The position numbers were made by a program, and so were the translations under genes. The notes under the pieces were generated by a model. It did not search any database. It was not told the origin of the DNA and saw nothing but the letters and a program-made list of their open reading frames with translations. Below, in pieces: positions 1-35,406 of a stretch of DNA of 41,415 bases (positions are counted from its first letter, which is position 1; each line of letters begins with the position of its first letter). Source of the stretch: a virus (taxonomy: Duplodnaviria > Heunggongvirae > Uroviricota > Caudoviricetes); IMG/VR virus record IMGVR_UViG_2579778884_000014; one strand, written 5' to 3'.

Positions 1-555
1 TCATTTATCTCCGACCGGAAACCTCTTATACAAAGTCGATATGCCAACATCATAGATGATCGCCACCTTCTGGCGAGGAACTCCTGATGCAATTAATCGT
101 CCGGCCTGTGCCCATTGTTCTGGTGTAAGTTTGGGACGTCGTCCACCAATTCGTCCCTGTGCGCGAGCAGCTTCCAGGCCAGCTTTTGTTCGTTCAACAA
201 TCAGTTCTCGTTCCATTTCAGCCAGGGCACCCATCACATGAAAGAAAAAACGCCCCATCGGTGTGCTGGTATCAATAGCATCCGTCAGGCTGCGAAAATT
301 AACGCCACGTTCGCGCAACTCCTCAACCAGAATGACCAGATGCCGCATACTACGCCCCAGCCGATCCAGCTTCCAGACAACCAGAGTGTCACCTGCCGAT
401 AATGTCCTGAGCAGTTTTTTCAGTCCCGGCCTTTCGGACTTTGTACCGCTTATTTTGTCTTCAAAAATCAGCTCGCATCCTGCACAGTTCAGCGCATTAC
501 GTTGTAGATCTGTGTTCTGGTCATTTGTTGACACACGTACATAGCCAATAAGCAT
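1..555 (-). CDS. pin: Serine DNA invertase (Pin/Gin/Hin/Cin family)
   Basis: Minus-strand ORF ending at the window edge; translation from the internal ATG (MLIGYVRVSTNDQNTDLQRNAL...) matches the canonical N-terminus of Pin/Gin-type invertases. ATG at 555 has a GGGAGA Shine-Dalgarno, the upstream ATG at 591 does not. Lies beside an inverted-repeat-bounded tail-fibre segment. Confidence 0.9.
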   Translation of the reverse strand: MLIGYVRVSTNDQNTDLQRNALNCAGCELIFEDKISGTKSERPGLKKLLRTLSAGDTLVVWKLDRLGRSMRHLVILVEELRERGVNFRSLTDAIDTSTPMGRFFFHVMGALAEMERELIVERTKAGLEAARAQGRIGGRRPKLTPEQWAQAGRLIASGVPRQKVAIIYDVGISTLYKRFPVGDK

Positions 556-610
556 GGTAGATCTCCCTGACAAAAGCAGGAATGATGCCATTTGCTCGTT
601 ATTTCTGCAT

Positions 611-634
611 TTTCATAAACGTTGGTTTGGGAGA
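611..634. repeat. Invertase crossover site, left boundary of invertible segment
   Basis: TTTCATAAACG-TT-GGTTTGGGAGA; the 13 bp TTGGTTTGGGAGA (622..634) is the exact reverse complement of TCTCCCAAACCAA at 2451..2463. Resembles gix/hix/cix-type sites with an AAAC..GTTT core around a central dinucleotide. Confidence 0.7.
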
Positions 635-1079
635 AGGTGCTCCAGCTATTGGCGTTCCGTTCTTCTGGCCGTCCGCCGCAATGCCAAATTCTGTCATCGA
701 CAGCTGGTCCGGTATGGTGTTTTTGAAGTTCAACGGGGCGAAATTTTCTGCCACTGATTACCCTGTGCTGGCGAAAGTGTTTCCTTCGCTGGTATTACCT
801 GAAGCCCGCGGTGATTTCATTCGTATCTGGGATGACGGGCGAGGTGCAGATGGTGGTCGCGAATTATTAAGCTGGCAGGAAGCTACAAACTTTTCTCAGT
901 TTGCCGGGAATATAGGCGGAGGTGCGGGACACGCAATTGACTTTCATGATGGCATCGCCGGAAATCAGCCAGGATTTTCACGATTTAATTTCACCAGTAA
1001 CTCTGTGGGTGATGGTGTGAATTTTGTTGCTGTCAGACCGCGAAATATTGCATTTAACTTTCTGGTGAGGGCTAAATAA
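624..1079 (+). CDS. Alternate tail-fibre C-terminal variable segment, not joined to the fibre N-terminus in this orientation
   Basis: Open frame starting at the left crossover site with no credible own start; encodes ...NVGLGEG... at the site, matching ...ENLGLGEAA... at the right-hand site inside the expressed fibre gene. Stop overlaps the ATG of the downstream assembly gene (TAATG). Confidence 0.6.
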   Translation, partial: GLGEGAPAIGVPFFWPSAAMPNSVIDSWSGMVFLKFNGAKFSATDYPVLAKVFPSLVLPEARGDFIRIWDDGRGADGGRELLSWQEATNFSQFAGNIGGGAGHAIDFHDGIAGNQPGFSRFNFTSNSVGDGVNFVAVRPRNIAFNFLVRAK

Positions 1080-1672
1080 TGAAACCTGTTTTTGATGAAA
1101 ATGGGCTGGCTACAGTGCCGGGCGATATGCGTTGTTTTTATTATGATGCTGAAACAACTGAGTATACGGGCTGGTCTGATGAATATATTAATACTGGCGT
1201 AAGTATGCCCGCCTGTTCCACTGGTATTGACCCGGGCGAAAACATTCCGGGAAAAGTGGCAGTATTTACGGGTAAGGGATGGAGCCATGAAGAAGACCAT
1301 CGCAATGAGACTGTTTACTCAACAGAAAATGGTGCAGCTGTTACAGTGGATTATATCGGTGCCATCAAAGACGGTTATGTCACGCTTTCACCGTTAACGC
1401 CATACGATAAATGGGATGGTGAGAAATGGGTGACGGATACCGAGGCACAGCATAGCGCCGCAGTAGGCGCGGCAGAAGCACAGCGCCAGTCGCTGATTGA
1501 TGCAGCAATGGCTTCCATTAGTCTGATTCAGCTGAAATTACAGGCCGGGCGGAAACTGACGCAGGCAGAAACAACCCGGCTTAACGCTGTGCTGGATTAC
1601 ATTGACGCGGTGACGGCAACAGATACCAGCACCGCGCCGGATGTCATCTGGCCTGAACTGACGGAGGCGTAG
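1079..1672 (+). CDS. Tail-fibre assembly protein, alternate copy
   Basis: 197 aa ORF directly after the alternate fibre segment, GGTGAGGG Shine-Dalgarno; position and size typical of Tfa/Mu U-prime type fibre chaperones. Converges on the minus-strand copy with a 29 bp 3-prime overlap. Confidence 0.7.
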   Translation: MKPVFDENGLATVPGDMRCFYYDAETTEYTGWSDEYINTGVSMPACSTGIDPGENIPGKVAVFTGKGWSHEEDHRNETVYSTENGAAVTVDYIGAIKDGYVTLSPLTPYDKWDGEKWVTDTEAQHSAAVGAAEAQRQSLIDAAMASISLIQLKLQAGRKLTQAETTRLNAVLDYIDAVTATDTSTAPDVIWPELTEA

Positions 1673-2084
1673 GCCATTCAATATCTGGCGCACTGGAAGT
1701 ATCGACCATTTCCAGTGCGTCCAGGTAATCCAGCCACAAATTATATTGCGCCAGTTCCTCACCTTTCAGACGACCAATAGCCGCTTTACCAGGCCATTGT
1801 TTACTGTTCATATAATCGTTGGCCTGATTAATCAATTGCTGCTTTTCCAGTTCGGCTGCAGCAATCTGTTCCTCATGCGTTGGTGGTGGAATTTCAGACC
1901 ATGCAGGAAAACCATTTTCTCCAGCGATACGGATTTTTCCTTCCGGCGGTAATCCGGAAAACTCAATATACACTTGCTCATCAACTTCAACAGCATCATC
2001 TGGCCATGAGTCAGCTTGCGTGTAATCCTCTTTCATCTCCAAGGGATAGAAAGAGTTTGTAGTCGCGGAATATATGTAATTCAT
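1644..2084 (-). CDS. Tail-fibre assembly protein, copy in the expressed orientation
   Basis: 146 aa ORF immediately downstream of the expressed fibre gene; the C-terminal halves of the two assembly proteins are similar (…LDY.DA…TS.APD..WP… in both). Confidence 0.75.
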   Translation of the reverse strand: MNYIYSATTNSFYPLEMKEDYTQADSWPDDAVEVDEQVYIEFSGLPPEGKIRIAGENGFPAWSEIPPPTHEEQIAAAELEKQQLINQANDYMNSKQWPGKAAIGRLKGEELAQYNLWLDYLDALEMVDTSSAPDIEWPTPPSVQAR

Positions 2085-2110
2085 TTTTCACTCCATAAAG
2101 TTAAAAGAAA

Positions 2111-2818
2111 TTAACACCCTAATGCGAAAAATGAAGCACCGATACCGGGTACGCCTGCTCTGGAAATAAATTTCACCGGGTCCTGGTTATAACCGGCACA
2201 AGCTATATAGCCAACATTTGCACTGCCGGGAGTGTAATCCTGAGTCGCAAATACCCGCAGACATCTGTTCGGAAATGCAATCGGAAAATAGGTTACTGTG
2301 TCCTGAGACGTCAGCGGAACATCAATTGGCCCCCATTGAATAATTAAACCGGATGGCAATTTTTGATATCCAGGAACTGAAGCAGAAAGCATAAAACTAC
2401 CCATATCAGGTATCTGATTCGTCCCTGTCCCCACATTCCTTTTTGCCGCCTCTCCCAAACCAAGGTTTTCGAGAGCCGTTTTCACCGTGCCATCCGATTT
2501 GATATCGCCAAACGGATTCTTGCGGCTCAGGTATTCAACAGCAAACCCCGATCCCAGCAATTCAACAAAACCGGGCAGATCACCATTATCAAGCACATCC
2601 CGTTGCGTTTTGTCACTTACAAACTGGGCCAGAGCTGCAGCAATAAAGCTGGCCTGCCGAATAACCTTATTGACTTGCGCACTGGATGCTTTCCCTGCTG
2701 TAAATCCGGATAAAAGCGCAGGCAACGCTTCCCATTCCTCCTGCGACATAACATTGGCATTTTTACCCGTTGCGAATGCTTTAAAGTCATTTTTTGCCAT
2801 CAGAGTAATACTCCCCAT
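2111..2818 (-). CDS. Tail fibre protein (constant N-terminus fused to invertible C-terminus)
   Basis: 235 aa ORF; the right crossover site (2451..2474) lies in-frame at about residues 115-123, so about 118 N-terminal residues are constant and the C-terminus is swapped by inversion. Confidence 0.75.
2451..2474. repeat. Invertase crossover site, right boundary of invertible segment
   Basis: TCTCCCAAACC-AA-GGTTTTCGAGA, a near-palindrome; inverted copy of the site at 611..634. Confidence 0.7.
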
Positions 2819-3480
2819 GCCCCTACATCAAAACCACTGATGAATTCGTTATCCATATCAAAACCAAAAAATTTTGAACCTTCCGATGGGGTTTCCACCG
2901 AAGGTGTTTCAATGCCACCCGCCCACACCCCGGCGGCTTTTACTGTGAGATATCCCTGTTTAATTGCAGCAATTAACTCACGCGATACATCTGAAATATC
3001 AGTATCAGGAAAGACCCAGACCGATATCGTCATGTCCTGGTTATCGACTATCTGCATTCGCAGCCCGGATCCTGCTGTTGCCGCGTCAAGAATTACCGGA
3101 AGCGAATCATTCCGTCCGTCCCAGTTATTAATCGCAATCTTCGCTTTAAGGATGACACGATAAGTTTCATCGCTGAGGTACATGTATCCGGAATCAGGAT
3201 CGTATGGCCCCTGCCATACACCCTGATCATATCCAAGCCCGTCGGTATCCCAGCTGAAATAGACACCTGAGATAGGCTGGCTGACAACACGGCTACGTCC
3301 GATCCACAATCCAAGAATGTCAAGTTGCACACCAACCGCGGAGTCAATATCAAATGCAGTAATCAACCCTCTGGTGGCCGCCGCAACATCAATAAGCGGC
3401 CGGGTCATCAGATCAACATGCGCAAGAAATTTAGGTTTGGTGGCGTGGTAGTTCGTGATTAGTTCGGTGTATTTGCTCAT
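2800..3480 (-). CDS. Baseplate / tail-fibre-associated protein (DUF2612-like)
   Basis: 226 aa ORF between the baseplate J-like gene and the tail fibre, overlapping both neighbours by a few bases; GxQLDxLG-type motif recalled from DUF2612 tail proteins. Confidence 0.55.
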
Positions 3481-4676
3481 GACTCCACCGTTATAACGAT
3501 ATTTTCCGGGGTACAGGACGCAAATTCGTTGTATCTGATATCAATGTTTGATGACGACAAAGCCCCCGGGGATTTCCCAATCGTCAGTTCCTGAATATCG
3601 TAATAGCGTGCATTCCCGCCACTCACCACGCCAAGATTCGCCGGTGAGTAAATGCGACTTAAAAGGACCGAATCACCAATCATCAGACTATTGATATAGT
3701 CGGAAATAGCCTGCTGGATCTGCTGCCCTATCTGTGAGGTATAACCCGTAAAAACTTTTAATTTAATCCGGGCATAAACAGGCACATCACTGGAACGCGA
3801 GAATTTGATTACATGGGGATTGCCGTATTTATCCGGAACCGTAACGGATGTTGTACCGTGAGTGGCTGTCCCCTGGCCTTTATTTCCTCTGATAGCCTGA
3901 GCAATATCCGTCACATCACCGCCATCCACAATTACAGCAACAGAGTGTGGCGGTAACCCGTTACCGTCCTCTGAACCAGTATCGTTTTCATAGAGTTTGT
4001 GGCGGGTTACACCGGTAACATTAGAAACAGCACCATCCAGTGCTTCAAATGGGGTTATTGATGGCAACGCAACACTTTGCGACTGACGGATACGTAACTC
4101 CGCATCAGTTTCTGCCGGAGTGCCTACAGTAGCTGCAGCAGGATTGGTTACCGAAACCCAGCCACGGGTTGGCGTATTAATTTCAGTGATAGTTCCAGCC
4201 AGCGCCGCCACTGCACCACTGACGGAACATGTTGCGGTCGCCATCACTGTACCATCCACGCCGACCACCACTGAAGCAGGCAAACGCCATATCACATTAT
4301 TACCATCTTTCACGCTGCCATTAATGATGGTTGTTCCGGCAGTTCCTGTAAGAAGCAAATCAACCGTAGAGTTCGTCGCGCCTTTACGTGAAATACCATT
4401 TATTTTCACGTTACTGGTCAGTGCAGCCCCATAGCCGGTTGCCGGTGAAAAACAGTTGTAGACAGTTATCGCAGTATTATTGGCATCATGAATCGCCAGC
4501 GCCATCAGAGCCACCATCTGGCCGTCTTTGCTGTCCGGTTCGAGGTAGGCATCACTGCCATAAATCTGCTGAAAATAGCTAATCAGGGTGCTGAGTATCG
4601 TCTGATAATCAGGCGCACTGATCCCCTCCGCGGTTACCTTTGCAGATAAACCGAGAGAATCAAGGTTCAGAGCCAT
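3477..4676 (-). CDS. Baseplate J-like protein
   Basis: 399 aa ORF at the expected position upstream of the fibre genes in Mu/P2-like baseplate modules; translationally coupled to neighbours. Confidence 0.65.
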   Translation of the reverse strand: MALNLDSLGLSAKVTAEGISAPDYQTILSTLISYFQQIYGSDAYLEPDSKDGQMVALMALAIHDANNTAITVYNCFSPATGYGAALTSNVKINGISRKGATNSTVDLLLTGTAGTTIINGSVKDGNNVIWRLPASVVVGVDGTVMATATCSVSGAVAALAGTITEINTPTRGWVSVTNPAAATVGTPAETDAELRIRQSQSVALPSITPFEALDGAVSNVTGVTRHKLYENDTGSEDGNGLPPHSVAVIVDGGDVTDIAQAIRGNKGQGTATHGTTSVTVPDKYGNPHVIKFSRSSDVPVYARIKLKVFTGYTSQIGQQIQQAISDYINSLMIGDSVLLSRIYSPANLGVVSGGNARYYDIQELTIGKSPGALSSSNIDIRYNEFASCTPENIVITVES

Positions 4677-5029
4677 TACGCCTCCGATGTAACAGTCGTT
4701 ATTCCATAAAGAGTGTCGATTTCAGCGGAAAACATGACACGTCGGGTCGTGGTATCCAGCGTCGTATTGAAAGAGAGGATTGATTTAACGCCCTGCGTTT
4801 CGAGGATGCGCTTACGGATCGCCAGGTTGTAGGTTTCCGGCTTCTGCTTACCGAGTACGGACTGGATCCACGGAGTCCCCTCGGTGGTGTCGAGAAACCA
4901 TTGCCCATACCACAATTCGAATCGCGTTTTTACCGCCTGCGCCACGGCCTCCGGTGAGTTAATCAGCCAGGTGTCATCACCGCTGCCAAAGGTGTAATCG
5001 CCATCGGCGTCTTCACGTCTGTATCGCAT
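4676..5029 (-). CDS. Small baseplate assembly protein (gp25/W-like position)
   Basis: 117 aa ORF between spike and J-like genes with start/stop coupling; call is by synteny only. Confidence 0.45.
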   Translation of the reverse strand: MRYRREDADGDYTFGSGDDTWLINSPEAVAQAVKTRFELWYGQWFLDTTEGTPWIQSVLGKQKPETYNLAIRKRILETQGVKSILSFNTTLDTTTRRVMFSAEIDTLYGITTVTSEA

Positions 5030-5781
5030 CAGTTTACCCCGTCGGTACTGCTTTCACCGCGCTGAACACCACCATGAGTGTGCGTATCATCGATTGGCTT
5101 GCCGTTAGCCTTCACGCCCCCCAAAAACTCAACAGCACCAGTGATTTTTGAAGCCACACCAGAAACCACAGACCCCACCATGCCCCCCATCCAGGTTAAC
5201 AGGCCATGAATGGTTACTTTCTCAGAAAAATCAGCCAGGGGGGCAACCACATCAAGACCACCTGGAGCGACAATTTTAATTTTCCTGGTATCAGGATTAA
5301 GCTCAAAATAGGTGCTGCCGTCATCACTACGCAACTGTGTGGCACTGGTATTAATACCGCTAATCTTCCTTGCCTGCGACTGGGGACCGACAATACAAAA
5401 CGCATCCGATAAATCATGCATTCTGTCATCGACCGACTCCTGTATCCCGCCACTCTGCCACCAGAAATCAATACAACGATCGGCAAAAATCACCAAACAT
5501 TCATCACCGGCTTTAACTGGGAACGTTAGCGTACATCCTCCGCCGCGCGGGAATACCACTGGCACATCCACCAGCAATGGGTAATTTTTGGTAATGCGGT
5601 TGCCGTCATTATCCTTTTCAACCGAACGGATAGCAGGCTGCACAACTGCCGTCACCGCATCAGGATCGAATGACTGAATAATGCCAGGCAAGGCGACACG
5701 GATCTGGTTCTTTGTTGTTTCCCGTTCAGATTTGAATGTTTCGGCAAGGTCGCCGCTGCGGGTCTGGTCAGATACTGCCAT
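5029..5781 (-). CDS. Baseplate central spike (gpV/Mu gp45-like)
   Basis: 250 aa ORF; synteny with the P2 V / Mu gp45 position, glycine-rich C-terminal region. Confidence 0.55.
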   Translation of the reverse strand: MAVSDQTRSGDLAETFKSERETTKNQIRVALPGIIQSFDPDAVTAVVQPAIRSVEKDNDGNRITKNYPLLVDVPVVFPRGGGCTLTFPVKAGDECLVIFADRCIDFWWQSGGIQESVDDRMHDLSDAFCIVGPQSQARKISGINTSATQLRSDDGSTYFELNPDTRKIKIVAPGGLDVVAPLADFSEKVTIHGLLTWMGGMVGSVVSGVASKITGAVEFLGGVKANGKPIDDTHTHGGVQRGESSTDGVN

Positions 5782-5840: not shown

Positions 5841-6236
5841 TCATGAAACTCTAGCAGACTTTAGCTGTTCCCAGCGCTCAAAATAGAGTTCAGCAGCCTC
5901 GATTGCATCCTGTCCCATCTCTTTCGAAACAGTCACATTCGTCAGATCATAGTCAGCTTCATTTCTAGCATCCCGCCACTGGCGAAGTACGAAAGCTAGG
6001 GATTTCAGTGTATTTGTCGGGTATGGCTCTGATTTGCACTCTGAGGGCGTTGACATATAACCCACAGTATTTTTGTGATGCTCATGGGTAAAATGCGGTA
6101 TGGCAGTAAGTGAGCTAATAGACTCATGTAACATACTGTAATACGCCCTTGAGATAGCGCTTCGAAATCCACTCTCAATATTTTCAGACAGACATAATCG
6201 AGCGGTATCGAGAATCTGATTGCTAGTTACCGACAT
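5841..6236 (-). CDS. Hypothetical protein, cargo gene 2; possible HEPN-like fold
   Basis: 131 aa ORF overlapping the upstream cargo gene by 14 bp; contains ...SRAYYSMLH... (R-x6-H) and a second LRQWRDARNEADYD helix. AT-rich relative to flanking tail genes by eye. Confidence 0.7.
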   Translation of the reverse strand: MSVTSNQILDTARLCLSENIESGFRSAISRAYYSMLHESISSLTAIPHFTHEHHKNTVGYMSTPSECKSEPYPTNTLKSLAFVLRQWRDARNEADYDLTNVTVSKEMGQDAIEAAELYFERWEQLKSARVS

Positions 6237-6996
6237 GGTAGCTCACCCCCGTATGCAACTGACGCGGAGAGGTAAATCTAGCTAACAGGGAACAATCATC
6301 CAGTTTAGATTCAGCGCAGACTCTATCAGCCAAGTCGAAGTTCATTTTGGCAATAGTTTTAGGCTCAAGATTTTTAATATCAACAACATAGCAACCGCTT
6401 CCACTAAGCTGAACGAAACCTGTCGTAGCCTTGTATTCACTTAGCAAGCCCCAGATTATGGATGCTAAGGTCTGGAACTGTTCCTTCGAGCACTGTGTGG
6501 CGCTATAGAAATTATCCATTTCTGCAAGGAGTTCTTCTTTGTGCTTCATAGCATTACTCCTGCCTTCTGATTCAGAAAGAAGCTTAATGTGCTCTTCCAT
6601 ATAAAATTTTAACTGTTCACGCTCGCCGCAACGGTACGCCCAACTGTATGCGTTGTGACTAAAGAGTTTTGTCCGATACTTCTTTGCCAGCGGGACATAG
6701 ACATCCTTGAGTTCATTATAGCTAAATGTATTAATTAAAATGTGATGATAGTGCATTGCCAACGTTACATCGTTTACTTCTAGGCTTATCCTGAGATAAC
6801 GTAACGCGCTTTCAATCTTTCCGGTTATTGCATCCAGATAAGATAGTGCAATGTTGGTAGCAGGCGTTGGAGAGACAGAAAGTTCCTCTCGAATTTTCTT
6901 TTCAGTGAAGGGATCTAAACTTTCCCTATCCAATAGAAGCGCATTGAATTGTTCAATATATTTTTGCGCTTTTTCTAATGGGATGCCTGCCGCCAT
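6223..6996 (-). CDS. Hypothetical protein, cargo gene 1
   Basis: 257 aa ORF with no recognisable virion-protein or enzyme motif; AT-rich by eye; preceded by a promoter-like element and a weak AAGAGA Shine-Dalgarno. Confidence 0.7.
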   Translation of the reverse strand: MAAGIPLEKAQKYIEQFNALLLDRESLDPFTEKKIREELSVSPTPATNIALSYLDAITGKIESALRYLRISLEVNDVTLAMHYHHILINTFSYNELKDVYVPLAKKYRTKLFSHNAYSWAYRCGEREQLKFYMEEHIKLLSESEGRSNAMKHKEELLAEMDNFYSATQCSKEQFQTLASIIWGLLSEYKATTGFVQLSGSGCYVVDIKNLEPKTIAKMNFDLADRVCAESKLDDCSLLARFTSPRQLHTGVSYHVGN

Positions 6997-8793: not shown

Positions 8794-9380
8794 TAGCCGC
8801 CCCCCAGTAATGACGCCACGTTACCCGTGATGCTTTTCAGCAGTGAAGTATCTGGAGGCTTTGTGGTTTTGTTGCCGCTGTTCTGTACCGCCGACGTGCT
8901 GGCCCCTTCCTTCATGTTGGTTTTATCCGCGACGGTAATCTGCTGTGTCCGGGAGATAATGACCTCCCTCAGGGTGAGGACAGCGGACAGGACGTTTTCG
9001 GTTGTCTTGTCCGTCGTCACTTCCAGCGCCCGGATCAACATGTTGCTGTACAGCCGTTTACCGGTTACCACATCGAAGGGGATACGGCTTTCCTGCAGAC
9101 CCAGTAGCTCCTGATACGTCTGCTGAGGACTCAGGCCGAGCAGGCTGGTAGCCGTCAGGTTACTGGCAAAATCCAGCAATGCGCCGCCACCGGCGAAACC
9201 AACCTCCATCACCACTTCTGACGGTTTTTTATAGGCATGATCAGCGACAGCGGCCCCGACCTCTACCGGATGCTCTGTTATTTCAAGCATATCTGTATGC
9301 TTCTCTGAAATAACAACACTGGGAACAATCATTCCTATTTTTCTGCTCTGCTGATGAAAAAGTGTAGAGAGAATATCCAC
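8793..9380 (-). CDS. Tail protein of unknown role
   Basis: 195 aa ORF immediately downstream of the tape measure gene with a 1 nt start/stop overlap. Confidence 0.45.
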   Translation of the reverse strand: MDILSTLFHQQSRKIGMIVPSVVISEKHTDMLEITEHPVEVGAAVADHAYKKPSEVVMEVGFAGGGALLDFASNLTATSLLGLSPQQTYQELLGLQESRIPFDVVTGKRLYSNMLIRALEVTTDKTTENVLSAVLTLREVIISRTQQITVADKTNMKEGASTSAVQNSGNKTTKPPDTSLLKSITGNVASLLGGG

Positions 9381-11365
9381 TAACCCACCCTCACCTGATT
9401 ACTTCGCATGACCTGAGCATTTGCAGACTGTTGCCGACGTGCAACCTCATTACCGACAGCGTGCGGATCTCCGCCACCGTAAATGTGGTAGGTATTTTGC
9501 TGGTTAACCTCTGTCACTTTGCCACTAATTCCCGCCACGGCAGCCTTATTAATCAGCTCTCGAGAATAGATATTTCTTCCATTCTCATGCTGGATAATGC
9601 TGCTCATCAATGCTGACATGGTTTGCGGATCACTCATATTCAGGGCAGCCCGGGGATCCACTCCCAGTCGTTGCGATACAGCCCTGATATACGCTGTTGT
9701 GTTGTTATTATCAGACGCAGGTGCCCAGGTAGAGATAATTTTCTCCACACTGTTTATTCCCCGTCCGGCGTACAGCATTAACTGACGAGCAAGAGCCCGT
9801 AATCCATCAAAGGCAGTTTCAAATCTGGCAAATCGCCCGCCCGGGCGTTCAAGAGAAGCCCCTGCCTGACCAGCAAAATTAAGGTTTCCCGGATTGTTAT
9901 TCCGTTCTCCTCGTTTCGTAGCCTGTGCATATTGTTCCGGCTCAGCACCTGGAATATCTGACTGAATATTTGCGCCTTTTACGGTATGAGGATTACGACC
10001 AAAATCGGTATCAATGCCAAGCCAGCGCAATGAATCTCCAATATTTTGTTTCGTGTAATCCCAGGATGACTTCGCACTGGCACCAATATTTTCGCGATCA
10101 GAGTACAAATACGCAGCATAAGCCATCCAGCCTTTTAACCACGGCGGGACCGGCAAACCTGATATTTTCCCGAAAGCCCCCAGAACCCTGGATACCCAGA
10201 CACCCGCGATGAATGTACCAAGGATTTCCAGTGCATTTTGCCAGCCGCCAACACCATCTTTTAGTTCCAGAAGGTGATCACGAAGCCAGGTGATCGCATC
10301 CTTCGCTTTATCTATTGCCGGTTGCCATTTTTCCCAGTCGATAAGACTGTTACCGCCTTCTTTCCATGTTTTGTAGTCTTCCCACAAGAGACCGAGAGCC
10401 ACGATCAGACCGGTAATCAGCCCTATAGGTGACATCCAGAAAGTAGAGTTAAGTATCCGCATGGCGACAACCAGACCGCCGATAACCTCTATCAGGGTTT
10501 TCGTTTCGGCATCCAGTTTCCCCCACCACTCGATGATATCTCCGACACCATCGACTATCCGAAATGCTACCCGCCCGACTATCTCACCCAGCCAGAGGAT
10601 CCCCTTTATGACCTTTGTGATGGTGACTTCAATTTTGGGAAAATTTTCAATTATCTTTTTGCGCAGGTTATCAATCTGCCCCGCCAGTCCGTCCGCAAGA
10701 TTCGATCCGATTTTGTCCCGCGCCATCCTGGCCATTTCACCGAGCGATTTCAGCGAGGTCATAAACCGGTTTGACGATAAGGCAGCCTGATCGGCATTAA
10801 ATCCGATCGCTTTCACCATTTCTGAATACTGAGCGCTGAACTGCCCCACTCCGCGACGCATAGCCATCAGGGTATTTTCGTCAATGCCCAGCATCTGCGC
10901 ATACTGGTTAGCCCGGTAATACGGCATGCTGCTGAGTTTCTGTCCAACGCCCGTAAAGATAGCAGCCATGTCACGCATGTTACCGCTGGCATCACGGGTC
11001 TGTACGCCCAGGCGATTCAGAAAGCCTTCTGCTCCGGGATTGTTACGAATAAACCGGGAGAGGCTTTCCAGAGAAGATCGCGCAGCGTCCACACTGCCGC
11101 CAACCTGCGAAACCGCATAGCCAATAGACTGAATTCCCTGGACCGTCGCGCCGGTGCGCTGTGACGCCCAGTAAAGATTATCCAGGCCGGAGGCGATCTT
11201 AGCCGTGAAGGCCACCACGGACAGCGCAGCCCCTTCAACAGCCAGCCCCATTTTGATGACATTTGCAGTTGTACCGGCGAGGACAGAACCGAACTTTTTC
11301 GCTCCTGCATCATCCACACTGAAGCCAAGCGAGACGAGGAAATCTTTAATAGTTTCAGCGTTCAT
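9380..11365 (-). CDS. Tail tape measure protein
   Basis: Largest gene of the tail module, alanine/glycine-rich with helical and hydrophobic segments. Track start at 11386 is a TTG; the ATG at 11365 has a strong GGAGAGAGG Shine-Dalgarno. Confidence 0.8.
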   Translation of the reverse strand: MNAETIKDFLVSLGFSVDDAGAKKFGSVLAGTTANVIKMGLAVEGAALSVVAFTAKIASGLDNLYWASQRTGATVQGIQSIGYAVSQVGGSVDAARSSLESLSRFIRNNPGAEGFLNRLGVQTRDASGNMRDMAAIFTGVGQKLSSMPYYRANQYAQMLGIDENTLMAMRRGVGQFSAQYSEMVKAIGFNADQAALSSNRFMTSLKSLGEMARMARDKIGSNLADGLAGQIDNLRKKIIENFPKIEVTITKVIKGILWLGEIVGRVAFRIVDGVGDIIEWWGKLDAETKTLIEVIGGLVVAMRILNSTFWMSPIGLITGLIVALGLLWEDYKTWKEGGNSLIDWEKWQPAIDKAKDAITWLRDHLLELKDGVGGWQNALEILGTFIAGVWVSRVLGAFGKISGLPVPPWLKGWMAYAAYLYSDRENIGASAKSSWDYTKQNIGDSLRWLGIDTDFGRNPHTVKGANIQSDIPGAEPEQYAQATKRGERNNNPGNLNFAGQAGASLERPGGRFARFETAFDGLRALARQLMLYAGRGINSVEKIISTWAPASDNNNTTAYIRAVSQRLGVDPRAALNMSDPQTMSALMSSIIQHENGRNIYSRELINKAAVAGISGKVTEVNQQNTYHIYGGGDPHAVGNEVARRQQSANAQVMRSNQVRVG

Positions 11366-11995
11366 TATCCTCTCTCCATTTCTCAATGCGTCGCTGGTTA
11401 TCCGCTTTTACCGCCAGATGGTCATTCAAGAGAGCAATGTCATACAAATCGACAGAGCCATCTTTAAGTGCTGTATAAGGAATTAACCCGGCGTCAACCG
11501 GATTGAGAAGGTAGGACAGCCCGTCCGGCAGGCTGTTAAACGTCAGCCCTGTTGCAGGCTCTGCGTCGTGCTGGTAAGGGGTGTAGGCAAAAAATTTCCC
11601 AGCGAATCGGCGACCACCCGCGCCACCAGCTGCAGCATGACCAGCAAGTCAATATCATCAAACATCAGTTCGCCCTGGGTAAATACCGGCACCCATCCGT
11701 CCATATGACGCCGCGATACCACCGCAAGACAGGGATGAATAATCGCATCGGTGTCATCTTCGGTCAGGGAAGACAGTTCCTCAGCGATACGCGGGAGCAT
11801 GGTTTCAAACACCGGTTTTAACTGTTCGAATTTCACGGTGTCGATTTTGCCGTCAGCAGGCAAACGGGAGCGAATACTCCCGAAATCTGACATCATTCCT
11901 GCCAACACCGGCAGAAGTTTGCGGGTCACTTTCAGTTGGTCAAAAACGCTGAGTTTTGCCACGCGATATTTCACGCCTTTAATTTCGAATTCCAT
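11355..11995 (-). CDS. Tail assembly chaperone, predicted -1 frameshift fusion product (GT-like)
   Basis: Slippery heptamer T_TTT_TTG (plus coordinates 11588..11594) about 15 codons before the chaperone stop; the -1 frame is open from there to a TGA at 11355..11357, just inside the tape measure start. Confidence 0.5.
11543..11995 (-). CDS. Tail assembly chaperone (G-like, unshifted product)
   Basis: 150 aa ORF between the tail tube and tape measure genes, the conserved chaperone position. Confidence 0.65.
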   Translation of the reverse strand: MEFEIKGVKYRVAKLSVFDQLKVTRKLLPVLAGMMSDFGSIRSRLPADGKIDTVKFEQLKPVFETMLPRIAEELSSLTEDDTDAIIHPCLAVVSRRHMDGWVPVFTQGELMFDDIDLLVMLQLVARVVADSLGNFLPTPLTSTTQSLQQG

Positions 11996-19171: not shown

Positions 19172-20489
19172 TCTCGATGTCCTCGTCGGTAATGGATGCC
19201 CCGATGCCGGTTACGTCAGAATTTTCGCGCAAATCGGTCATAGCGGCTTTCAGTGTCATCAGACCATCACCCAGCGCTGTACTGATTGCGTTGGTGGTGT
19301 TTAACGCCACCGTTGAGCGATCGACATCAGACATTTGCCAGAGCGGGTTAAACTCAAACGTGAAATCGTCCGGCAGCGGCTTGCCAAGTTCCGAACGATG
19401 CATGATGTCCAGTATCCGCCGCACCGGAAGACGTAAACGTCTCTCCTGCAACGAGCTTACCCGATCGTAATAGTTGGCAAGGTCTGCATCGCCGGTAGAA
19501 AATCCTTTCGGGGACTGTCCGAACAACCGCACCAGTGGGATACCAACAGCGCCACTAATCTGTTCTGCAAACTGTGAAAGGATGTCATCCAGACCACTGA
19601 AGCTGTACTGATGGGTTTCAAACTTATCCCGCGAGTCCATGAGCGTCATGCCTTCATTACTCTGGAACTGTCGAATCAGGTCGATATTCTTCAGCAACGC
19701 TTCATACGCAGGACCACCAAGTGCGATAAGCTCGCGTAGCTTCTCCACGCTGTAGGTACGCAAATGCGCTTTGTAGACCAGCTGCGCCGCGCCGACAGTA
19801 GCGCTGTCGAACGCGGTAAGACGATCCCAGATACGCTCTACAACCGACATTCCCCATTCGTTCTCGGTCATCTTCTGCTGAAATGGCAGCGTGACGCCAT
19901 CAAAGCGAATCAGTCGACTGTGATGAATGCGCCAGGCAGGAATTCCCGTTGCTGTGGTCACCACATCGTAAAACTCAGGTTTACCCAGGTCCGGCCCCAT
20001 ATCTTTAATGCGGCGGGTCAGTACCGGGTCAATCATCCAGCGGTCGAGCGGGAGAATCCCCTTAAACTTGCCCTTACCGATGGTTTCGGGTCGCAGCGGG
20101 GTCATTGGTGCCTGCCCCTCAATCATGATGAAACCCACCGCGCCGCCGTAGAGGCGCGACCATTTCAGCACGTCATTCAGCGCATCCCAGATTTGCAACT
20201 CATCCAGTTGTGATTCGAGAATGCCGCGATCTTTTGCATCAATTTCCGAAGTGATGCGAATGCCTTTGCGGGTCATATCATCCGGGATAGCATCGACCGC
20301 TTCGCCGATGATCCAGGACGAACGATAGGACCATTCCACCAGCATGCGGTTACGACTGGTGAAATTAGCCCGGTAGGTGGATGCTGAGTGCTGGTTAGGT
20401 GTCTGCATCCCTACGCGGGCAATAAAATTCTCATAACCATCAGCTGTGGCCTGCGCAGTTCGCCGCAGGGCTTGTTTGTTTCGTGCCAT
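19023..20489 (-). CDS. Portal protein
   Basis: 488 aa ORF immediately downstream of the large terminase (ATGA overlap), acidic C-terminus. Confidence 0.65.
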   Translation of the reverse strand: MARNKQALRRTAQATADGYENFIARVGMQTPNQHSASTYRANFTSRNRMLVEWSYRSSWIIGEAVDAIPDDMTRKGIRITSEIDAKDRGILESQLDELQIWDALNDVLKWSRLYGGAVGFIMIEGQAPMTPLRPETIGKGKFKGILPLDRWMIDPVLTRRIKDMGPDLGKPEFYDVVTTATGIPAWRIHHSRLIRFDGVTLPFQQKMTENEWGMSVVERIWDRLTAFDSATVGAAQLVYKAHLRTYSVEKLRELIALGGPAYEALLKNIDLIRQFQSNEGMTLMDSRDKFETHQYSFSGLDDILSQFAEQISGAVGIPLVRLFGQSPKGFSTGDADLANYYDRVSSLQERRLRLPVRRILDIMHRSELGKPLPDDFTFEFNPLWQMSDVDRSTVALNTTNAISTALGDGLMTLKAAMTDLRENSDVTGIGASITDEDIENAEDEAPPGIGEPDDEPQEPSGGNPLSNQPTQDSAGGRRHRKWSLRWFK

Positions 20490-25400: not shown

Positions 25401-25580
25401 TGTACCAACCTGTACCCACCTGTACCAGCTCTTTTCAAACCTTTTCCCCAAGCGACTTATATATATATATGGGGTTCTTAGTAATTAGGTTGGTACAGAT
25501 GGTACAGTTGGTACTGGCCTTTAAATTCAATTAGTTAAAATGTACCAACCTCTATTTTGAGGTTGGTACAGGTTGGGACA
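25401..25580. repeat. Iteron array with AT-rich spacer (putative replication origin)
   Basis: Three direct TGTACC(A/C)ACC-type copies (25401..25430), a (TA)n tract (25459..25470), three inverted copies (25488..25518), a perfect palindrome TGTACCAACCTC-TATTTT-GAGGTTGGTACA (25541..25570) overlapping the primase stop codon, and a degenerate GGTTGGGACA copy. Confidence 0.6.
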
Positions 25581-27744
25581 CCGCCTCAAAAATTCGAGTC
25601 ATTTTCCCCCCAATTCGCCTTTGGGCACGCTTATACCCGCAATTTTGCAAAACATTACTAATTCGCATTTCTTCGCGTTTTCCGATGCGGTCAGGATTTA
25701 GCCCAATCGCATCACGCAAAACATCACTTGCGCGTAAAAATTCGCAATTTCGCGGAAGTTCATTAGTCATCAGGTCTGGCGTGTCGAGCCATTTCTCTAC
25801 CGTTTCAAGCCAAGCATCCTTGATGGTGTACTGTTCATGGACACTCGCTGCCAGTTGTTCAGCCTCACGGAACTGGATACCCCCCAGACGCTGAAACACC
25901 TCACGAGCCTCAGCCCAAAGTAAAAGGAGATCTCTTTTTATCGCTTTCACGTCGACTTTCGACACTTCCACGGGGAGCCAGCGACGGTTACCAGTCTTGT
26001 CCGCAAGGAATTCGTCCTCATTGGTGGTACCAACGAACACCAGGCGACGAGGAAACTGGGTGGCGAACTCCCGGTATTTCGGGATCCAGTTTTCGTGAGT
26101 ACGCGTCACAAACGCTTTGATTGACTCCAGCTCTTTGGTATTAAGTCCGCGCAGTTCACCAATCTCTGCCACCAGCCGACCACGCATTTTTCGAGCGAGA
26201 TCATCGTCTTTTTCGGCAAAAGAGATTTCAGTAAAAAACGCAGGATCAGGGCTCAGTGCCTCCACTCCGGAAGACTTACCGCAGCCCTGCGGACCAACGA
26301 GGATCGGCACCATATCCGCTTTGATGCCTGGCTCCAGTACTCGCCCCGCCAACGCGGTCCACATGTACATAGACACCGCACGGGTATAAGGCGTGTCGGC
26401 GGTACCGAAGTGCGTATGGTAGAAACATTCGATGCGCGGCACGCCATCCCACTCCAGTCCGTTCAGCCAAGTGATCGCTGAATCGAATGGTTGTTCATCG
26501 GCTGCAAGTAACACCACATCGCGAATAAGTTCACGACCAACAGGTTTAAATCCCCGCTTTTCCATCGTGATGCGCAGGCGCGCATAATCCGCATCGGTGA
26601 ATGCCCGCCATTGTCCGGATCCTGCAGGGGCAAACATGATTTCGTCGCGGAACTGGTCAAAGCGAATATCGATGTCCACAAAATCAGGGCGTACTACTGC
26701 TTTGGCTGCGTTGCTGATTGTTGCCTCGATACGCCCCCATTTATCACGCTCGAAAGCAGGCAGCGGTAAAGGTTCCGCCACTTCGGTGCTGGTCAGATCT
26801 TCGAAATCGTCGTTGCGGATCCCGATGGCATTAAGGAAATCTCCGTCATCACGATGCGCACAACTGGCATGCAGGCATTTAAAATGCCCCTGCTCAAAGC
26901 CCGCGGTTCCCGCAGGAAAATAAACTGTGCTTGTTGGATCGCCCCCGCTACTGTGGCCGTCTTCAAACGGACAGCGGATATATCGTTCACCATTTGCGCC
27001 ATCCAGCAGCGTCCAGCCATTGGCATCAAGATATTCAGCTGTATCATCCGTCGCGCCGGGCGTGAATGCTGATCGGTCGCGCATCTTCGTGTTGCCCGCT
27101 TCGGTGGTTACCGACACAGGGAGTTGTTCAGCCAGGCGCTGCCACAGCGTTTCAAGCTGCTCACCAGTAATAGCCGGAGGTTCATCCGGCAAACCGCCGT
27201 CCCATTCAATACGCGCGCCGCTGCTGTGCGTACCGCAGGCAACGAACTGCTGCCCGTTCGCCAGCAACTCGATAATGCCCATATCCCCCGCCAGGCGATG
27301 GATACGCTTACGGAAATCACCATCAACGGCCAGCAGATACAGACACTTATTACTGTTTGCTCGCCAGCGTCGCGGCGGCAACTCACCCAGAAGTTGCACA
27401 AGCGTTTTGCGAATATCTGCCTGAATGTCTTCATCTTCGCTATCACAGTCCAGCGCCAGCCAGCCATGGCCTGTACGCACGCAGATGCCATAATCCGGTT
27501 CATTCGACCAGCGGGCAAAATCATGCTCAGTAACAACATGCCCGGTCCATTGAGCAATACCGGTGACCTGGCGGTCCCGGTTATAGCGACTCGGCGTCTT
27601 ACCCAACGCTTTCAGTTTACTATCAGGGGATATGGTCGCACTGGGGTTACATACAACTGGGAGAAGATGATCAGTTCTCCCCAATACCAGGTCGAAATGA
27701 AACCACTCATCAGGCGTAGCTCCCCATGGTTTGCTATCGGACAT
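25552..27744 (-). CDS. DNA primase-helicase (Prim-Pol-like N-terminus, VirE/D5-like P-loop C-terminus)
   Basis: 730 aa; Walker A ...VGPQGCGKSS..., Walker B-like ...RLVFVGTTNE..., cysteine/histidine cluster (CPFEDGH...CLHASCAH) typical of primase zinc-binding regions. Confidence 0.8.
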   Translation of the reverse strand: MSDSKPWGATPDEWFHFDLVLGRTDHLLPVVCNPSATISPDSKLKALGKTPSRYNRDRQVTGIAQWTGHVVTEHDFARWSNEPDYGICVRTGHGWLALDCDSEDEDIQADIRKTLVQLLGELPPRRWRANSNKCLYLLAVDGDFRKRIHRLAGDMGIIELLANGQQFVACGTHSSGARIEWDGGLPDEPPAITGEQLETLWQRLAEQLPVSVTTEAGNTKMRDRSAFTPGATDDTAEYLDANGWTLLDGANGERYIRCPFEDGHSSGGDPTSTVYFPAGTAGFEQGHFKCLHASCAHRDDGDFLNAIGIRNDDFEDLTSTEVAEPLPLPAFERDKWGRIEATISNAAKAVVRPDFVDIDIRFDQFRDEIMFAPAGSGQWRAFTDADYARLRITMEKRGFKPVGRELIRDVVLLAADEQPFDSAITWLNGLEWDGVPRIECFYHTHFGTADTPYTRAVSMYMWTALAGRVLEPGIKADMVPILVGPQGCGKSSGVEALSPDPAFFTEISFAEKDDDLARKMRGRLVAEIGELRGLNTKELESIKAFVTRTHENWIPKYREFATQFPRRLVFVGTTNEDEFLADKTGNRRWLPVEVSKVDVKAIKRDLLLLWAEAREVFQRLGGIQFREAEQLAASVHEQYTIKDAWLETVEKWLDTPDLMTNELPRNCEFLRASDVLRDAIGLNPDRIGKREEMRISNVLQNCGYKRAQRRIGGKMTRIFEAVSQPVPTSK

Positions 27745-29337: not shown

Positions 29338-29487
29338 ATGAAACCTGAACACATCCATCGACTGACGGGGCGCGATGTTCTCCGTTATCGCCGTAAAAAC
29401 TTCGATTTGATGACCGGTCTGGCCGTTGCCACTGCGCTCGGTCTGATCATCACTTTCATTCTCCTTGTAGCGAGGACCACAGTATGA
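29338..29487 (+). CDS. Small single-pass membrane protein
   Basis: 49 aa from the ATG with an AAGGAA Shine-Dalgarno (track ORF starts earlier at a GTG); hydrophobic C-terminal segment LAVATALGLIITFILLV; first gene of the plus-strand operon. Confidence 0.4.
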   Translation: MKPEHIHRLTGRDVLRYRRKNFDLMTGLAVATALGLIITFILLVARTTV

Positions 29488-30386
29488 GTTTAGAAACCAG
29501 TCTAGAACTTAATAATCAACTTCTGGCACAACATAATGCGCTGCTTGAACGTCTTATCCGCACAATGGCATCAGGCATTGTTATGCATCCTGACACGATT
29601 TCACGAGTGCAGGAATGTCGGGATACAGCAACTGAAACTGAAAATATGTCAGCGGCAATGACACTGGATGATCTGGAGTTCAGCGACGTTATCGCACTGG
29701 CTGGTTTCTACCCGGTAGCCACCCCTATCACAGAAGACATGCTGCAACGTGCTGTTGCCTACCGTGATGCTGAAGGCGATAAACGAGTTGTTCAGATTGA
29801 TGCTCTCGACAGCGCATTGCAGGGCGTCAAACGAGCCAGGGCGCTGCTTAAACCTGCTCTCCTGGACCTGTCCCGTAACATCCTTAAGTTCTGGGACGAC
29901 CTGCCAACCATCGGCGAGCGACGTGCTTTTGCCGAGCAGCTACTTGATGCACCTGCAGATGGGCGTGATGAAGTTAAGCCGAAAAAGGCCAGTAACAAAG
30001 ATGGAGAACGCACGGGGCCGTTTTACGTCAAAAATGTATCCGGCACAGCAGCCAGTGAACTCCATACCTTACGCAAGTTGAACGAGATGCTTAAAAAAGG
30101 CCATATCGAGATCAACCGTGTTGAGTACCTTCAGCTGCAGGAAGAATTTGCACGCAGAGACGCAGCAAATTCCAGCCAGAATAATGACGCCAAAGATGAC
30201 CATACAATTGATTTCGCGGCACTACGCAAACAAGCTGAAGGGTTGATCCTCCAGTTAGCAAAAGGGGGTTACCGGGCAGAAGCTATTGCAATTCTGGAAA
30301 AACAGGGAGCCAGGAAACTTGGTGAAGTAACGGATGAAAATCTCGCTGAAGTAATCACCCTGGCTGAAAAAGCACTGGAGGGTTAA
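29484..30386 (+). CDS. Hypothetical protein
   Basis: 300 aa ORF translationally coupled (ATGA overlap) to the preceding small gene; no motif recognised. Confidence 0.6.
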
Positions 30387-30388
30387 TC

Positions 30389-31690: not shown

Positions 31691-31705
31691 TTTAAGGAAA
31701 TCCCC

Positions 31706-32254: not shown

Positions 32255-32290
32255 AAATATTCATCCCCCAGCTGCGTGCTGGGGGATCTC

Positions 32291-32944: not shown

Positions 32945-33011
32945 TATTTCTTATAACAAAGGCTGGCTTAAGAAAATAGTTATCCAAACCAGCCTACCGC
33001 AATACTAAAAA

Positions 33012-33281
33012 TTAAAATTCATTGAATTTAAAAAGACATTTCCCTATTGGATTGCCATAGTCTCTACATACCGAAATGCTGTCCCATACAGGCTGAGCCA
33101 AACACCCAAGAAAGAACCCAATAAGCGCAAAAATTATAATTTTGGGAAGAACACGATCCTTAGGACCTTCTTCACGTTCGAGCCATGCGCCACCAGCCCG
33201 AACTATTCTCCCTAAAATATAAAGAATGGGGAAAGCAATAATACCTATCAATGAAAGTATTCCGATACCAAAGCTAAACAC
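33012..33281 (-). CDS. Small two-helix membrane protein, antisense insertion
   Basis: 89 aa from a GTG start with a strong AAGGAGA Shine-Dalgarno; two hydrophobic helices; AT-rich island on the strand opposite the surrounding operon. Confidence 0.65.
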   Translation of the reverse strand: MFSFGIGILSLIGIIAFPILYILGRIVRAGGAWLEREEGPKDRVLPKIIIFALIGFFLGCLAQPVWDSISVCRDYGNPIGKCLFKFNEF

Positions 33282-35401: not shown

Positions 35402-35406
35402 TCGCT

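Follow-up and report, generated by a model that had tools for sequence, protein, structure and literature searches.

A probable Pin-type serine-invertase switch on the tail fibre gene of a Brunovirus-like Escherichia coli prophage

Gene content of the locus

The window, by which we mean the whole 41.4-kb stretch of DNA analysed here, begins with pin, a gene for a small serine DNA invertase, which is followed by an invertible segment and then by the constant N-terminal part of a tail fibre gene (Table 1). Within the segment two alternative fibre C-termini face each other, the expressed Sv and the silent Sv′, each followed downstream by its own Caudo_TAP chaperone gene. This arrangement of two convergent fibre ends, two assembly genes and an adjacent serine invertase had been laid out in a preliminary description of the sequence, and we find the gene content as it was given there. 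The expressed fibre most likely starts at 2800, with 2818 as the alternative. It had been called unusually short, which we do not uphold: a length of 229–270 aa is normal for this type of cassette, the StfP fibre of e14 having 209 aa and the fibre of SEN34, which sits on the same baseplate, 381 aa.

Table 1. Features at the left end of the window (positions in window numbering)
Feature	Position	Strand	Size or details	Evidence or remarks
pin, small serine DNA invertase	1–555	minus	184 aa	Pfam Resolvase 1e-51 and HTH_7 7e-12
Putative recombinational enhancer	470–537	minus	in the 5′ end of pin	homology to the P7 cin enhancer
ATG-initiated leader before Sv′	582–621	plus		outside the segment
Sv′, silent fibre C-terminus, collar-type tip	582–1079	plus	in-segment part 624–1079	C-terminus from ~636
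Left (pin-proximal) crossover site	610–635		26 bp; core TT at 622–623	TTTTCATAAACG-TT-GGTTTGGGAGAA
Invertible segment	622–2463		1,842 bp including both core dinucleotides	in-silico flip matches natural genomes
tfa′, assembly chaperone cognate to Sv′	1079–1672	plus	197 aa	Caudo_TAP 1e-26; phrog_105 1e-83
tfa, assembly chaperone cognate to Sv	1644–2084	minus	146 aa	Caudo_TAP 2e-38; phrog_188 5e-66
Sv, expressed variable fibre C-terminus, gp53-like tip	2111–2461	minus		Pfam Gp53-like_C 5e-18
Expressed fibre, whole ORF	2111–2800/2818	minus	229–235 aa
Right crossover site, inside the fibre gene	2450–2475		26 bp; core AA at 2462–2463	CTCTCCCAAACC-AA-GGTTTTCGAGAG
Sc, constant fibre N-terminal part	2464–2800	minus		linker and baseplate anchor
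Sc, e14-type linker	2464–2527	minus		DNA match to e14 ends at 2527
Sc, Brunovirus-type baseplate anchor	2528–2800	minus		fibre residues 1–90 70% identical to the SEN34 fibre N-terminus
DUF2612 baseplate-wedge gene	2800–3480	minus	directly upstream of the fibre, same late operon	Pfam DUF2612 1e-46

Both tips resemble known receptor-binding ends, of different families. Sv resembles the gp53-like fibre of AP22 (4mtm) and the fibre feet of R-type pyocins (6ct8 and 6cl6, E 1e-4 to 7e-4), whereas Sv′ matches tail fibre and tail collar fibre families (phrog_3100, 8e-80; phrog_523, 1e-42), shows weak similarity to the T4 gp37 tip (2xgf, E 0.013), and at the DNA level is 91.5% identical to the tail fibre ends of the lambdoid phages mEp213 and mEp043. 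The chaperone genes and C-terminal segments are intact in both halves of the segment, so the decay of the silent half that had been raised as a possible objection to a switch is not what is found. When 622–2463 is flipped in silico, the 235-aa fibre becomes a 270-aa fibre, in frame and with both versions open to a stop, in line with the earlier proposal that inversion would swap the C-terminal part of the fibre. The inverted product is also annotated in naturally inverted genomes, as WP_029404455.1, with 264 aa counted from the second ATG.

By homology, the backbone that carries this cassette is that of a Brunovirus (SEN34)-like temperate myovirus prophage of E. coli and not that of e14. The prophage is inserted between yfhH and yfhL, and the DUF2612 gene is followed by Baseplate_J and others in the same order as in SEN34. 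What the window has in common with e14 is confined to pin, the crossover sites, a short linker and the C-terminal halves of the chaperones; from residue 92 onward the fibre aligns to K-12 StfP. SEN34 is an isolated phage and as such is better evidence for a viable backbone than records of the vB_EcoM-606R2 type. We rejected vB_EcoM-606R2 and similar records as proof of packaging, since they contain host genes and a truncated invertase.

Crossover sites

The segment is bounded by a 13-bp inverted repeat without a mismatch, TTGGTTTGGGAGA at 622–634 against TCTCCCAAACCAA at 2451–2463, as had been described. The repeat extends to 18 nt at 94% identity, and no longer inverted repeat lies in the first 5 kb of the window. 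By a rough estimate ~0.2 inverted repeats of 13 bp are expected by chance in 5 kb, such that the repeat is not significant alone; its significance comes from the fact that both copies sit in 26-bp pseudo-palindromes. The crossover sites are accordingly 26 bp in length and not 24 bp as first given, and while the bracketed segment is present, it measures 1,842 bp from core to core instead of ~1.86 kb. The two sites are in inverted orientation, with the core reading AA from inside to outward, and the reading frames through them are those previously noted: the right site lies in the fibre frame (...ENLGLGE...) and the left site opens the silent segment (...NVGLGEG...).

The sites align with those of known invertases, namely gix of Mu, cix of P7 and the sites of e14, an alignment that had been suggested as a check. 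Searching with the gix/cix-type consensus TTNTCNNAAACCNNGGTTTNNGANAA, which was derived from gix and cix, and allowing at most 3 mismatches, we found two matches in the 41.4 kb of the window, where shuffles led us to expect 0.03, the left site with 1 mismatch and the right site with 2. For e14, reference sites were taken directly from the K-12 genome and from PMC12529663. In the P segment of e14 in K-12 MG1655, the pin-proximal site agrees with the left site of the window at 26/26 positions, and the stfP-side site with the right one at 25/26. The window sites also match TTGGTTTGGGAGAAGG, the repeats reported for the P segment, for which inversion has been measured (PMC12529663).

A multi-inversion system with extra crossover sites was considered and rejected, as the strict consensus search of the window returned those two sites alone. 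A looser search gave a few 3-mismatch matches at chance level, one of which is a pseudo-palindrome at 19964–19989.

The invertase and its putative enhancer

The invertase most likely starts at the ATG at 555 (MLIGYVRV..., in agreement with the RefSeq annotation) and not at 591; RefSeq names the identical gene pinE, with 555 nt. Pin is 95.7% identical to K-12 PinE, 81% to P7 Cin and 78% to Mu Gin, and its size and domain layout, with an N-terminal resolvase catalytic domain bearing the nucleophilic serine and a C-terminal HTH, are those of the Hin/Gin/Cin/Pin subclass. By homology, then, the invertase of the locus is a Pin/Gin/Cin orthologue. Among solved structures its best match is Gin 3uj3 (E 2e-93), in which the S9A position aligns with Ser9 in the Pin motif GYVRVSTNDQ. 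The window Pin keeps the wild-type residue both at this catalytic serine and at Met114, where the Gin sequence of 3uj3 has Val, a change that we take to make Gin independent of Fis. The wild-type Met114 of Pin is at least consistent with Fis dependence.

A putative enhancer lies in the 5′ part of pin, where window positions 470–537 are homologous to nt 19–86 of P7 cin, annotated ‘enhancer’ (AF503408), with 52/68 positions identical. Fis-like 15-mers occur at 519–533 and 471–485, in a region that is also under coding constraint. Their starts, at gene positions 23 and 71, are separated by 48 bp, and this is equally so in the window pin, K-12 pinE and P7 cin; the centre of the proximal 15-mer lies ~96 bp from the left core. 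This evidence is confounded because the N-terminus of Pin is conserved as coding sequence.

Both orientations occur in nature

Both orientations of the segment are found in complete E. coli genomes, six of which match the window orientation at 100% and five the in-silico inverted orientation at 100% over 3.5 kb. A single orientation had been named as the observation that would speak against a switch; these genomes show two, and near-isogenic pairs are among them. The strains RIVM_C036204 and RIVM_C029670 differ before re-inversion from position 635 to position 2450, and once the segment of RIVM_C029670 is re-inverted, they show 0 mismatches over 23.5 kb. Two 3.5-kb BLAST matches likewise place BH100 and BH100N in opposite orientations, BH100N being a 1987 laboratory derivative of BH100, itself a 1974 isolate (PMC7874104). 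More widely, the two expression-site junctions were found in 17 and 156 genomes, and both orientations are seen as well among relatives whose pin is truncated at the C-terminus. It is conceivable that assemblies differ in orientation according to the subpopulation that the assembler picked, which would itself mean a mixed culture.

These observations bear on whether the locus still switches and by what means. The orientations in the databases might be old, inherited states of a fossil locus that no longer switches, in keeping with the truncated invertase of many related prophages and with the prophage tape-measure gene, which is annotated as disrupted in the RIVM strains. We regard this as extremely improbable, however, as pin in the window is complete and keeps its catalytic residues, both sites are intact, and orientation differs between strains identical over their 23.5-kb flanks as well as between two sub-strains of one 1974 isolate. 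The orientation differences within the RIVM and BH100/BH100N pairs therefore require recent flips.

The flips might also be catalysed by a Pin-like invertase encoded elsewhere, or arise from homologous recombination at the repeats, in place of the adjacent pin. Members of the Pin-like invertase family are classically interchangeable. For homologous recombination, 13 bp of identical sequence make a very improbable substrate, given the lengths on which RecA acts. For the e14 P segment, inversion in trans by PinQ, encoded in prophage Qin, has been reported (PMC12529663), and a source in trans would fit the lineages in which pin is truncated and both orientations still occur. The pin adjacent to the window segment, however, is intact and 95.7% identical to PinE, whose deletion locks the e14 segment (PMC12529663), and the breakpoints lie precisely inside the recombinase site. 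An origin of the flips other than the adjacent pin is therefore, in our judgement, very unlikely.

Proposed mechanism

From the anatomy and homologies of the locus, its two in-frame products and the two orientations in near-isogenic strains, we consider it highly probable that the locus is a Pin-type, Fis/enhancer-dependent serine-invertase switch on the fibre gene of a Brunovirus (SEN34)-like prophage. By analogy with the rest of its family, the window Pin would catalyse the inversion in dependence on Fis; invertases of this subclass also depend on HU and on negative supercoiling, and they carry out inversion only, through a single rotation of subunits. Dimers of Pin would bind the two inverted 26-bp sites, and Fis on the putative enhancer near the start of pin would join with site-bound Pin to form an invertasome. 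Cleavage at the central AA/TT dinucleotides, a position within the 13-bp identity that is adopted from related invertases, followed by one rotation and religation, would then flip 622–2463.

The late operon is predicted to run from right to left through the constant part of the fibre gene (2800 to 2464) and on into the variable end that happens to adjoin it. As the segment stands in the window, this would yield the 229–235-aa fibre with a gp53-like tip and the 146-aa chaperone, and after inversion the 270-aa fibre with a collar-type tip and the 197-aa chaperone. A population of lysogens would in this way release virions with two receptor specificities, and the orientations would be expected to differ in host range, as they do elsewhere in this family.

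The open reading frame at 582

The pin-proximal copy of the fibre end might have a use of its own. An ATG-ATG leader at 582 could be translated through the left site to give a free receptor-binding domain, of 165 aa in the window orientation and 130 aa in the other, as a second output of the locus or as its chief role in the lysogen, where it could mask receptors or block superinfection in another way, as has been suggested for the e14 chimera StfE2. In either orientation the ATG-initiated ORF does begin outside the segment and continue across the left site, and its 130-aa form is annotated as a protein in RefSeq. For e14, adsorption of T2 is reported to be blocked by the StfE2 chimera (Kirigo et al. 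2025, PMC12529663). The leader, MMP..Y.CIF.NVGLGE with adjacent GGAG/AGGA, is also present in K-12 e14 (stfE), in the P2-like pro483 and in the Klebsiella phage KP12, but the Shine-Dalgarno-like motif is poorly spaced, at 0–3 nt from the leader ATGs, and the leader peptide is poorly conserved in amino acids. Retention of the leader would be explained by the overlap of its DNA with the probable pin promoter and operator.

For transcription of the ORF we found no convincing promoter, the sole plus-strand match being 9/12, ~180 bp upstream and inside pin; a promoter and terminator scan of 1–3600 gave no more matches than shuffles and is uninformative on both the pin promoter and expression of the ORF. 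PADLOC, applied to Pin, the 582 ORF and a two-gene insert at 5841–6996, returned no matches, which weighs against a second output. A function in the virion is the simpler reading because the prophage looks largely intact, and we hold a free domain made from 582 to be unlikely. The combined claim, that one flip sets the host range of the virion and, through the domain expressed from 582, also a receptor-masking defence that varies in the lysogen, seems to us a shade less likely again. If true, a domain made from 582 would extend the claim made for e14 StfE2 to intact prophages.

We return to the fibre switch as the preferred reading of the locus. It is very probably a working copy of the long-known Pin/P-segment type, real but ordinary: mechanism, sites and enzyme were already known in the 1980s, and the name pinE is in RefSeq, which leaves little discovery value. 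Its use is in accounting for the pseudogene call (‘missing N-terminus’) that automatic annotation gives to one fibre end, and for the 1.8-kb inversion that sets apart genomes identical in all other respects. It is also a clean example of the pin cassette moving as a module made up of pin, both sites, a 65-nt linker and the C-terminal halves of the chaperones. This module travels among unrelated backbones, from the lambdoid e14 and the P2-like pro483 to the Brunovirus-like window, with its receptor-binding cargo exchanged.

Comparison with known systems

The closest known system is the P segment of e14, a cryptic, defective lambdoid prophage of K-12; this segment was first described by Plasterk and van de Putte in 1985. 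Its genes, pinE, stfP, tfaP, tfaE and stfE, follow the same order as in the window (pin, site, Sv′, tfa′, tfa, Sv, site, Sc), in both cases transcription of pin leads away from the segment, and the fibre linker and silent-side leader ORF are the same. The segment sizes are comparable, with 1,842 bp in the window and 1,797 bp reported for e14 (PMC12529663), and inversion of e14 by PinE has been demonstrated by sequencing and PCR (PMC4272514; PMC12529663). In contrast, both receptor-binding ends and the N-terminal halves of the chaperones are unrelated between the two at the DNA level, the fibre anchor and phage backbone are those of a Brunovirus/SEN34-like myovirus in the window and of a defective lambdoid prophage in e14, and the window prophage lies between yfhH and yfhL, with no mcrA adjoining its pin, whereas e14 lies at icd. 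Because the variable ends have no DNA similarity, the backbone is SEN34-like and the insertion is at yfhH/yfhL, the locus is to be classed as a relative of the e14 P segment and not as the e14 P segment itself.

The same comparisons place the Pin switch of the window with the Gin/G segment of Mu, the Cin/C segment of P1 and P7 and the Pin/P segment of e14. The G segment of Mu follows the same logic, with Sc and the alternative Sv/U and Sv′/U′; its Gin is 78% identical to the window Pin, the 26-bp sites have a common half-site pattern, and gin, like the window pin, has its start ~55 bp from the proximal site and reads away from the segment. The Mu core dinucleotide, however, is GA where the window has AA, and the G segment is larger, at ~3 kb, with much longer fibres (S = 504 aa) whose sequences are unrelated to the window fibre. 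In P1 and P7, Cin is 81% identical to the window Pin, the core is AA/TT as in the window, and the stretch annotated as an enhancer in the 5′ end of cin has its Fis-like sites at the same positions as the window pin stretch with which it shares 52/68 nucleotides. Unlike the window pin, cin is transcribed toward its segment, with cixL overlapping the 3′ end of the gene, and the C segment, at ~4 kb, encodes a very long fibre. Hin, of the H segment of Salmonella, belongs to the same class of enhancer-dependent serine invertases with 26-bp sites, and its 65-bp enhancer, with two Fis sites, lies ~100 bp from one site (PMC3798978), a geometry comparable to the ~96 bp of the proximal Fis-like 15-mer in the window. 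Hin, however, is encoded inside its segment and flips a promoter that controls flagellin, whereas the window switch would act on a phage fibre.

Both orientations of the segment occur in complete genomes

The orientation seen in the window is matched at 100% over 3,500 bp in six complete E. coli genomes (F11, RIVM_C036204, RIVM_C040753, two BH100 sub-strains and Ecol_542), and the sequence inverted in silico is matched at 100% over 3,500 bp in five others (RIVM_C029670, RIVM_C040348, HG994850, HG994851 and BH100N), so that a single fixed orientation, which the preliminary description had named as evidence against a switch, is not what these genomes hold. In RIVM_C036204 and RIVM_C029670 the prophage lies at the same chromosomal position, the differences across 23.5 kb are confined to 635-2450 (window numbering), and once 622-2463 is re-inverted the 23.5 kb align with 0 mismatches. 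The assemblies of the 1974 isolate BH100 and of BH100N, its plasmid-cured derivative from 1987 (PMC7874104), likewise carry opposite orientations. Isogenic pairs of opposite orientation contradict the idea of a fossil locus that no longer switches. The constant N-terminal part of the fibre is joined to the gp53-like end, the tip of the window orientation, in 17 genomes and to the alternative, collar-type end in 156. For the K-12 e14 P segment, experiments have shown that single cultures hold both orientations and that inversion depends on pinE (PMC4272514, PMC12529663).

The crossover sites belong to the gix/cix type

The perfect 13-bp inverted repeat reported earlier can be read from the sequence at 622-634 and 2451-2463, and with a repeat finder it reaches 18 nt at 94%, more than any other inverted repeat in the first 5 kb. 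An identity of just 13 bp makes RecA-type recombination between the repeats an implausible source of the inversions. A lone 13-mer inverted repeat of this kind is unremarkable, and it is the embedding in 26-bp pseudo-palindromes that sets both copies apart; the crossover sites of the preliminary description therefore stand, while their length of 24 bp does not. The consensus TTNTCNNAAACCNNGGTTTNNGANAA, derivable solely from the gix sites of Mu and the cix sites of P7, found exactly two matches in the 41.4-kb window, namely the two sites, with one and two mismatches and 0.03 matches expected, which aligns both with known crossover sequences. The left site agrees with its pin-proximal counterpart in the e14 P segment at 26/26 positions and the right site with the stfP-side one at 25/26, and the 16-bp repeat TTGGTTTGGGAGAAGG of the experimentally inverted e14 segment (Kirigo et al., PMC12529663) is found unaltered at 622-637. 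Every crossover inside the 13 bp of identity would give one and the same product, so the sequence does not fix the point of cleavage; going by the invertase family, it would be at the central dinucleotide. Another 26-mer pseudo-palindrome, CATCGTAAAACT-CA-GGTTTACCCAGG at 19964-19989 in a head gene, resembles an invertase site under a loose half-site pattern, with three mismatches, but the stricter search with the 26-bp consensus did not pick it up and the resemblance is probably due to chance.

Features of the invertible cassette and stretches shared with e14 (window numbering)
Feature	Position	Strand	Description
pin invertase	1-555	-	184 aa, resolvase family, C-terminal HTH
Second fibre end	582-1079	+	matches PHROG tail-fibre and tail-collar families
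Left site	610-635	+	TTTTCATAAACG-TT-GGTTTGGGAGAA, 26-bp pseudo-palindrome
Two convergent chaperone genes within the segment	1079-1672 / 1644-2084	+ / -	Caudo_TAP
Fibre	2111-2800/2818	-	Gp53-like_C end
Right site	2450-2475	+	CTCTCCCAAACC-AA-GGTTTTCGAGAG, 26-bp pseudo-palindrome
Contractile-tail late operon upstream of fibre		-	DUF2612 gene, Baseplate_J, others
pin and left site common to e14	3-637		93%
Short stretch common to e14	1038-1072		
C-terminal halves of the two chaperone genes common to e14	1391-1821		89%
Right site and 65 nt linker common to e14	2441-2527		94%

The adjacent invertase and a putative enhancer

The serine invertase lies immediately beside the segment, as first described, with its start ~55 bp from the proximal site. 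A 196-aa ORF from 591 probably has the wrong start for pin, because RefSeq and all relatives start at MLIGYVRV. The enzyme is 95.7% identical to PinE of K-12 e14, 81% to Cin of P7 and 78% to Gin of Mu, and compared with Gin structure 3uj3 it has Ser9 and Met114 against Ala and Val in the crystallised sequence. Mu has the same spacing and its gene is likewise directed away from the segment, whereas cin of P7 is directed toward it.

In the P7 record, nt 19-86 of cin carry an enhancer annotation, and the corresponding stretch of pin (470-537) is identical at 52 of 68 positions. In the window pin, K-12 pinE and cin alike, this stretch holds two 15-mers that fit a degenerate Fis consensus and start 48 bp apart. 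The pair spans 63 bp, and in the window the nearer one is centred ~96 bp from the left core, a geometry that agrees with that of Hin, whose enhancer of 65 bp, bounded by two Fis sites, lies ~100 bp from hixL (PMC3798978). These features are supportive of a putative recombinational enhancer within the pin 5' end but not conclusive, since the enzyme's conserved N-terminus is encoded by the same stretch.

Less probably, inversion is driven by a trans-acting invertase rather than by the adjacent pin. A widespread sister lineage has a truncated pin (595-861 in NZ_CP195459.1, locus L011; 2947-3261 in ON470579.1, locus L010), and NZ_CP195459.1 lacks the C-terminal part of pin but retains the invertible segment. 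Among the matches to the window and to the in-silico inverted sequences, this lineage has genomes in both orientations, which suggests either trans inversion by other Pin-like enzymes or flips older than the truncation. PinQ does act on e14 in trans (PMC12529663); against a trans-acting source, the pin adjacent to the segment is intact here.

In-silico inversion exchanges the fibre tip

Flipping 622-2463 in silico leaves both junctions as 26-bp sites and converts the 235-aa fibre with the gp53-like end into an in-frame 270-aa fibre with the collar-type end, both open to the stop codon and each followed by its own chaperone gene. The two alternative fibre C-termini, the two assembly genes and the swap by inversion proposed in the preliminary description are all borne out, but an unusually short fibre is not supported, since 229-270 aa is normal in such company and e14 StfP has 209 aa. 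The gp53-like end is similar to the AP22 gp53-like fibre 4mtm and to R-type pyocin fibre feet, while the collar-type end has weak similarity to the T4 gp37 tip and is 91.5% DNA-identical to fibre ends of the lambdoid phages mEp213 and mEp043. The two ends are therefore receptor-binding modules of different kinds. In one orientation RefSeq calls the silent end (610-1079; 10618-11079 in the RIVM-strain locus L002) a pseudogene, 'incomplete; missing N-terminus', and in the other automatic annotation calls the alternative full fibre a 'hypothetical protein'; both labels are an annotation artefact of invertible cassettes.

The short leader ORF MMPFARYFCIFINVGLGEG at 582-621(+) has its start outside the segment, 26 nt away from the start codon of pin, which is on the opposite strand, and reads through the left site. 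Its ATG-ATG arrangement is conserved despite amino-acid changes in K-12 e14 (L001 about 6617-6656), pro483 (L014 2957-2996) and KP12 (L013 710-749), which would favour translation of the pin-proximal copy from this leader, in parallel with the StfE2 defence claim for e14 (PMC12529663). However, the leader shares its DNA with what is probably the control region of pin, and we consider such translation improbable; neither the sequence nor a promoter scan gave a good promoter or ribosome-binding geometry for the 582 ORF.

The carrier prophage and comparison with known systems

The prophage is flanked by yfhH and yfhL, and its far end codes for a tyrosine integrase. An insert at 5841-6996(-), which separates the tail spike gene (5029-5781) from the other baseplate genes, consists of two overlapping ORFs, one of 131 aa with a RAYYSMLH (Rx4-6H-like) motif and one of 257 aa; Pfam and PADLOC searches gave no match for either, and RefSeq has the larger ORF only, as hypothetical. 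Phage SEN34 has just a 45-aa ORF at this position, and the insert may be a moron or accessory cassette. The early region at 29484-39349(+) encodes a DUF2800 PD-(D/E)XK nuclease, DUF2815, an Nmad5 nucleotide-modification domain protein, a family-A DNA polymerase, a SAM methyltransferase, a Dcm-type cytosine methyltransferase and a SNF2 helicase; together with the VapE primase-helicase at 25552-27744(-) it is a replication and possible DNA-modification module, unusually self-sufficient for a temperate E. coli prophage. In the window (9380-11386) and in BH100 the tape-measure/lytic transglycosylase gene has an intact ORF of 668 aa, but in the RIVM strains (L002 19380-21365) it is annotated as two pseudogene fragments, so that some carriers may hold a defective prophage.

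At the DNA level the window and e14 have only the four tabulated stretches in common, and their receptor-binding ends are unrelated. Salmonella phage SEN34, a temperate Brunovirus known as an isolated phage, shares the baseplate gene order but has no invertase; the N-terminus of its 381-aa fibre is 70% identical to residues 1-90 of the window fibre. The whole window is a prophage of the SEN34 (Brunovirus) type. Its pin cassette is thus a portable module, joined at ~nt 2527 to a fibre anchor of foreign origin, and it occurs likewise on the P2-like pro483 and on Klebsiella phage KP12. The locus is real and was rightly interpreted from the start: a textbook inversion system in a new carrier.
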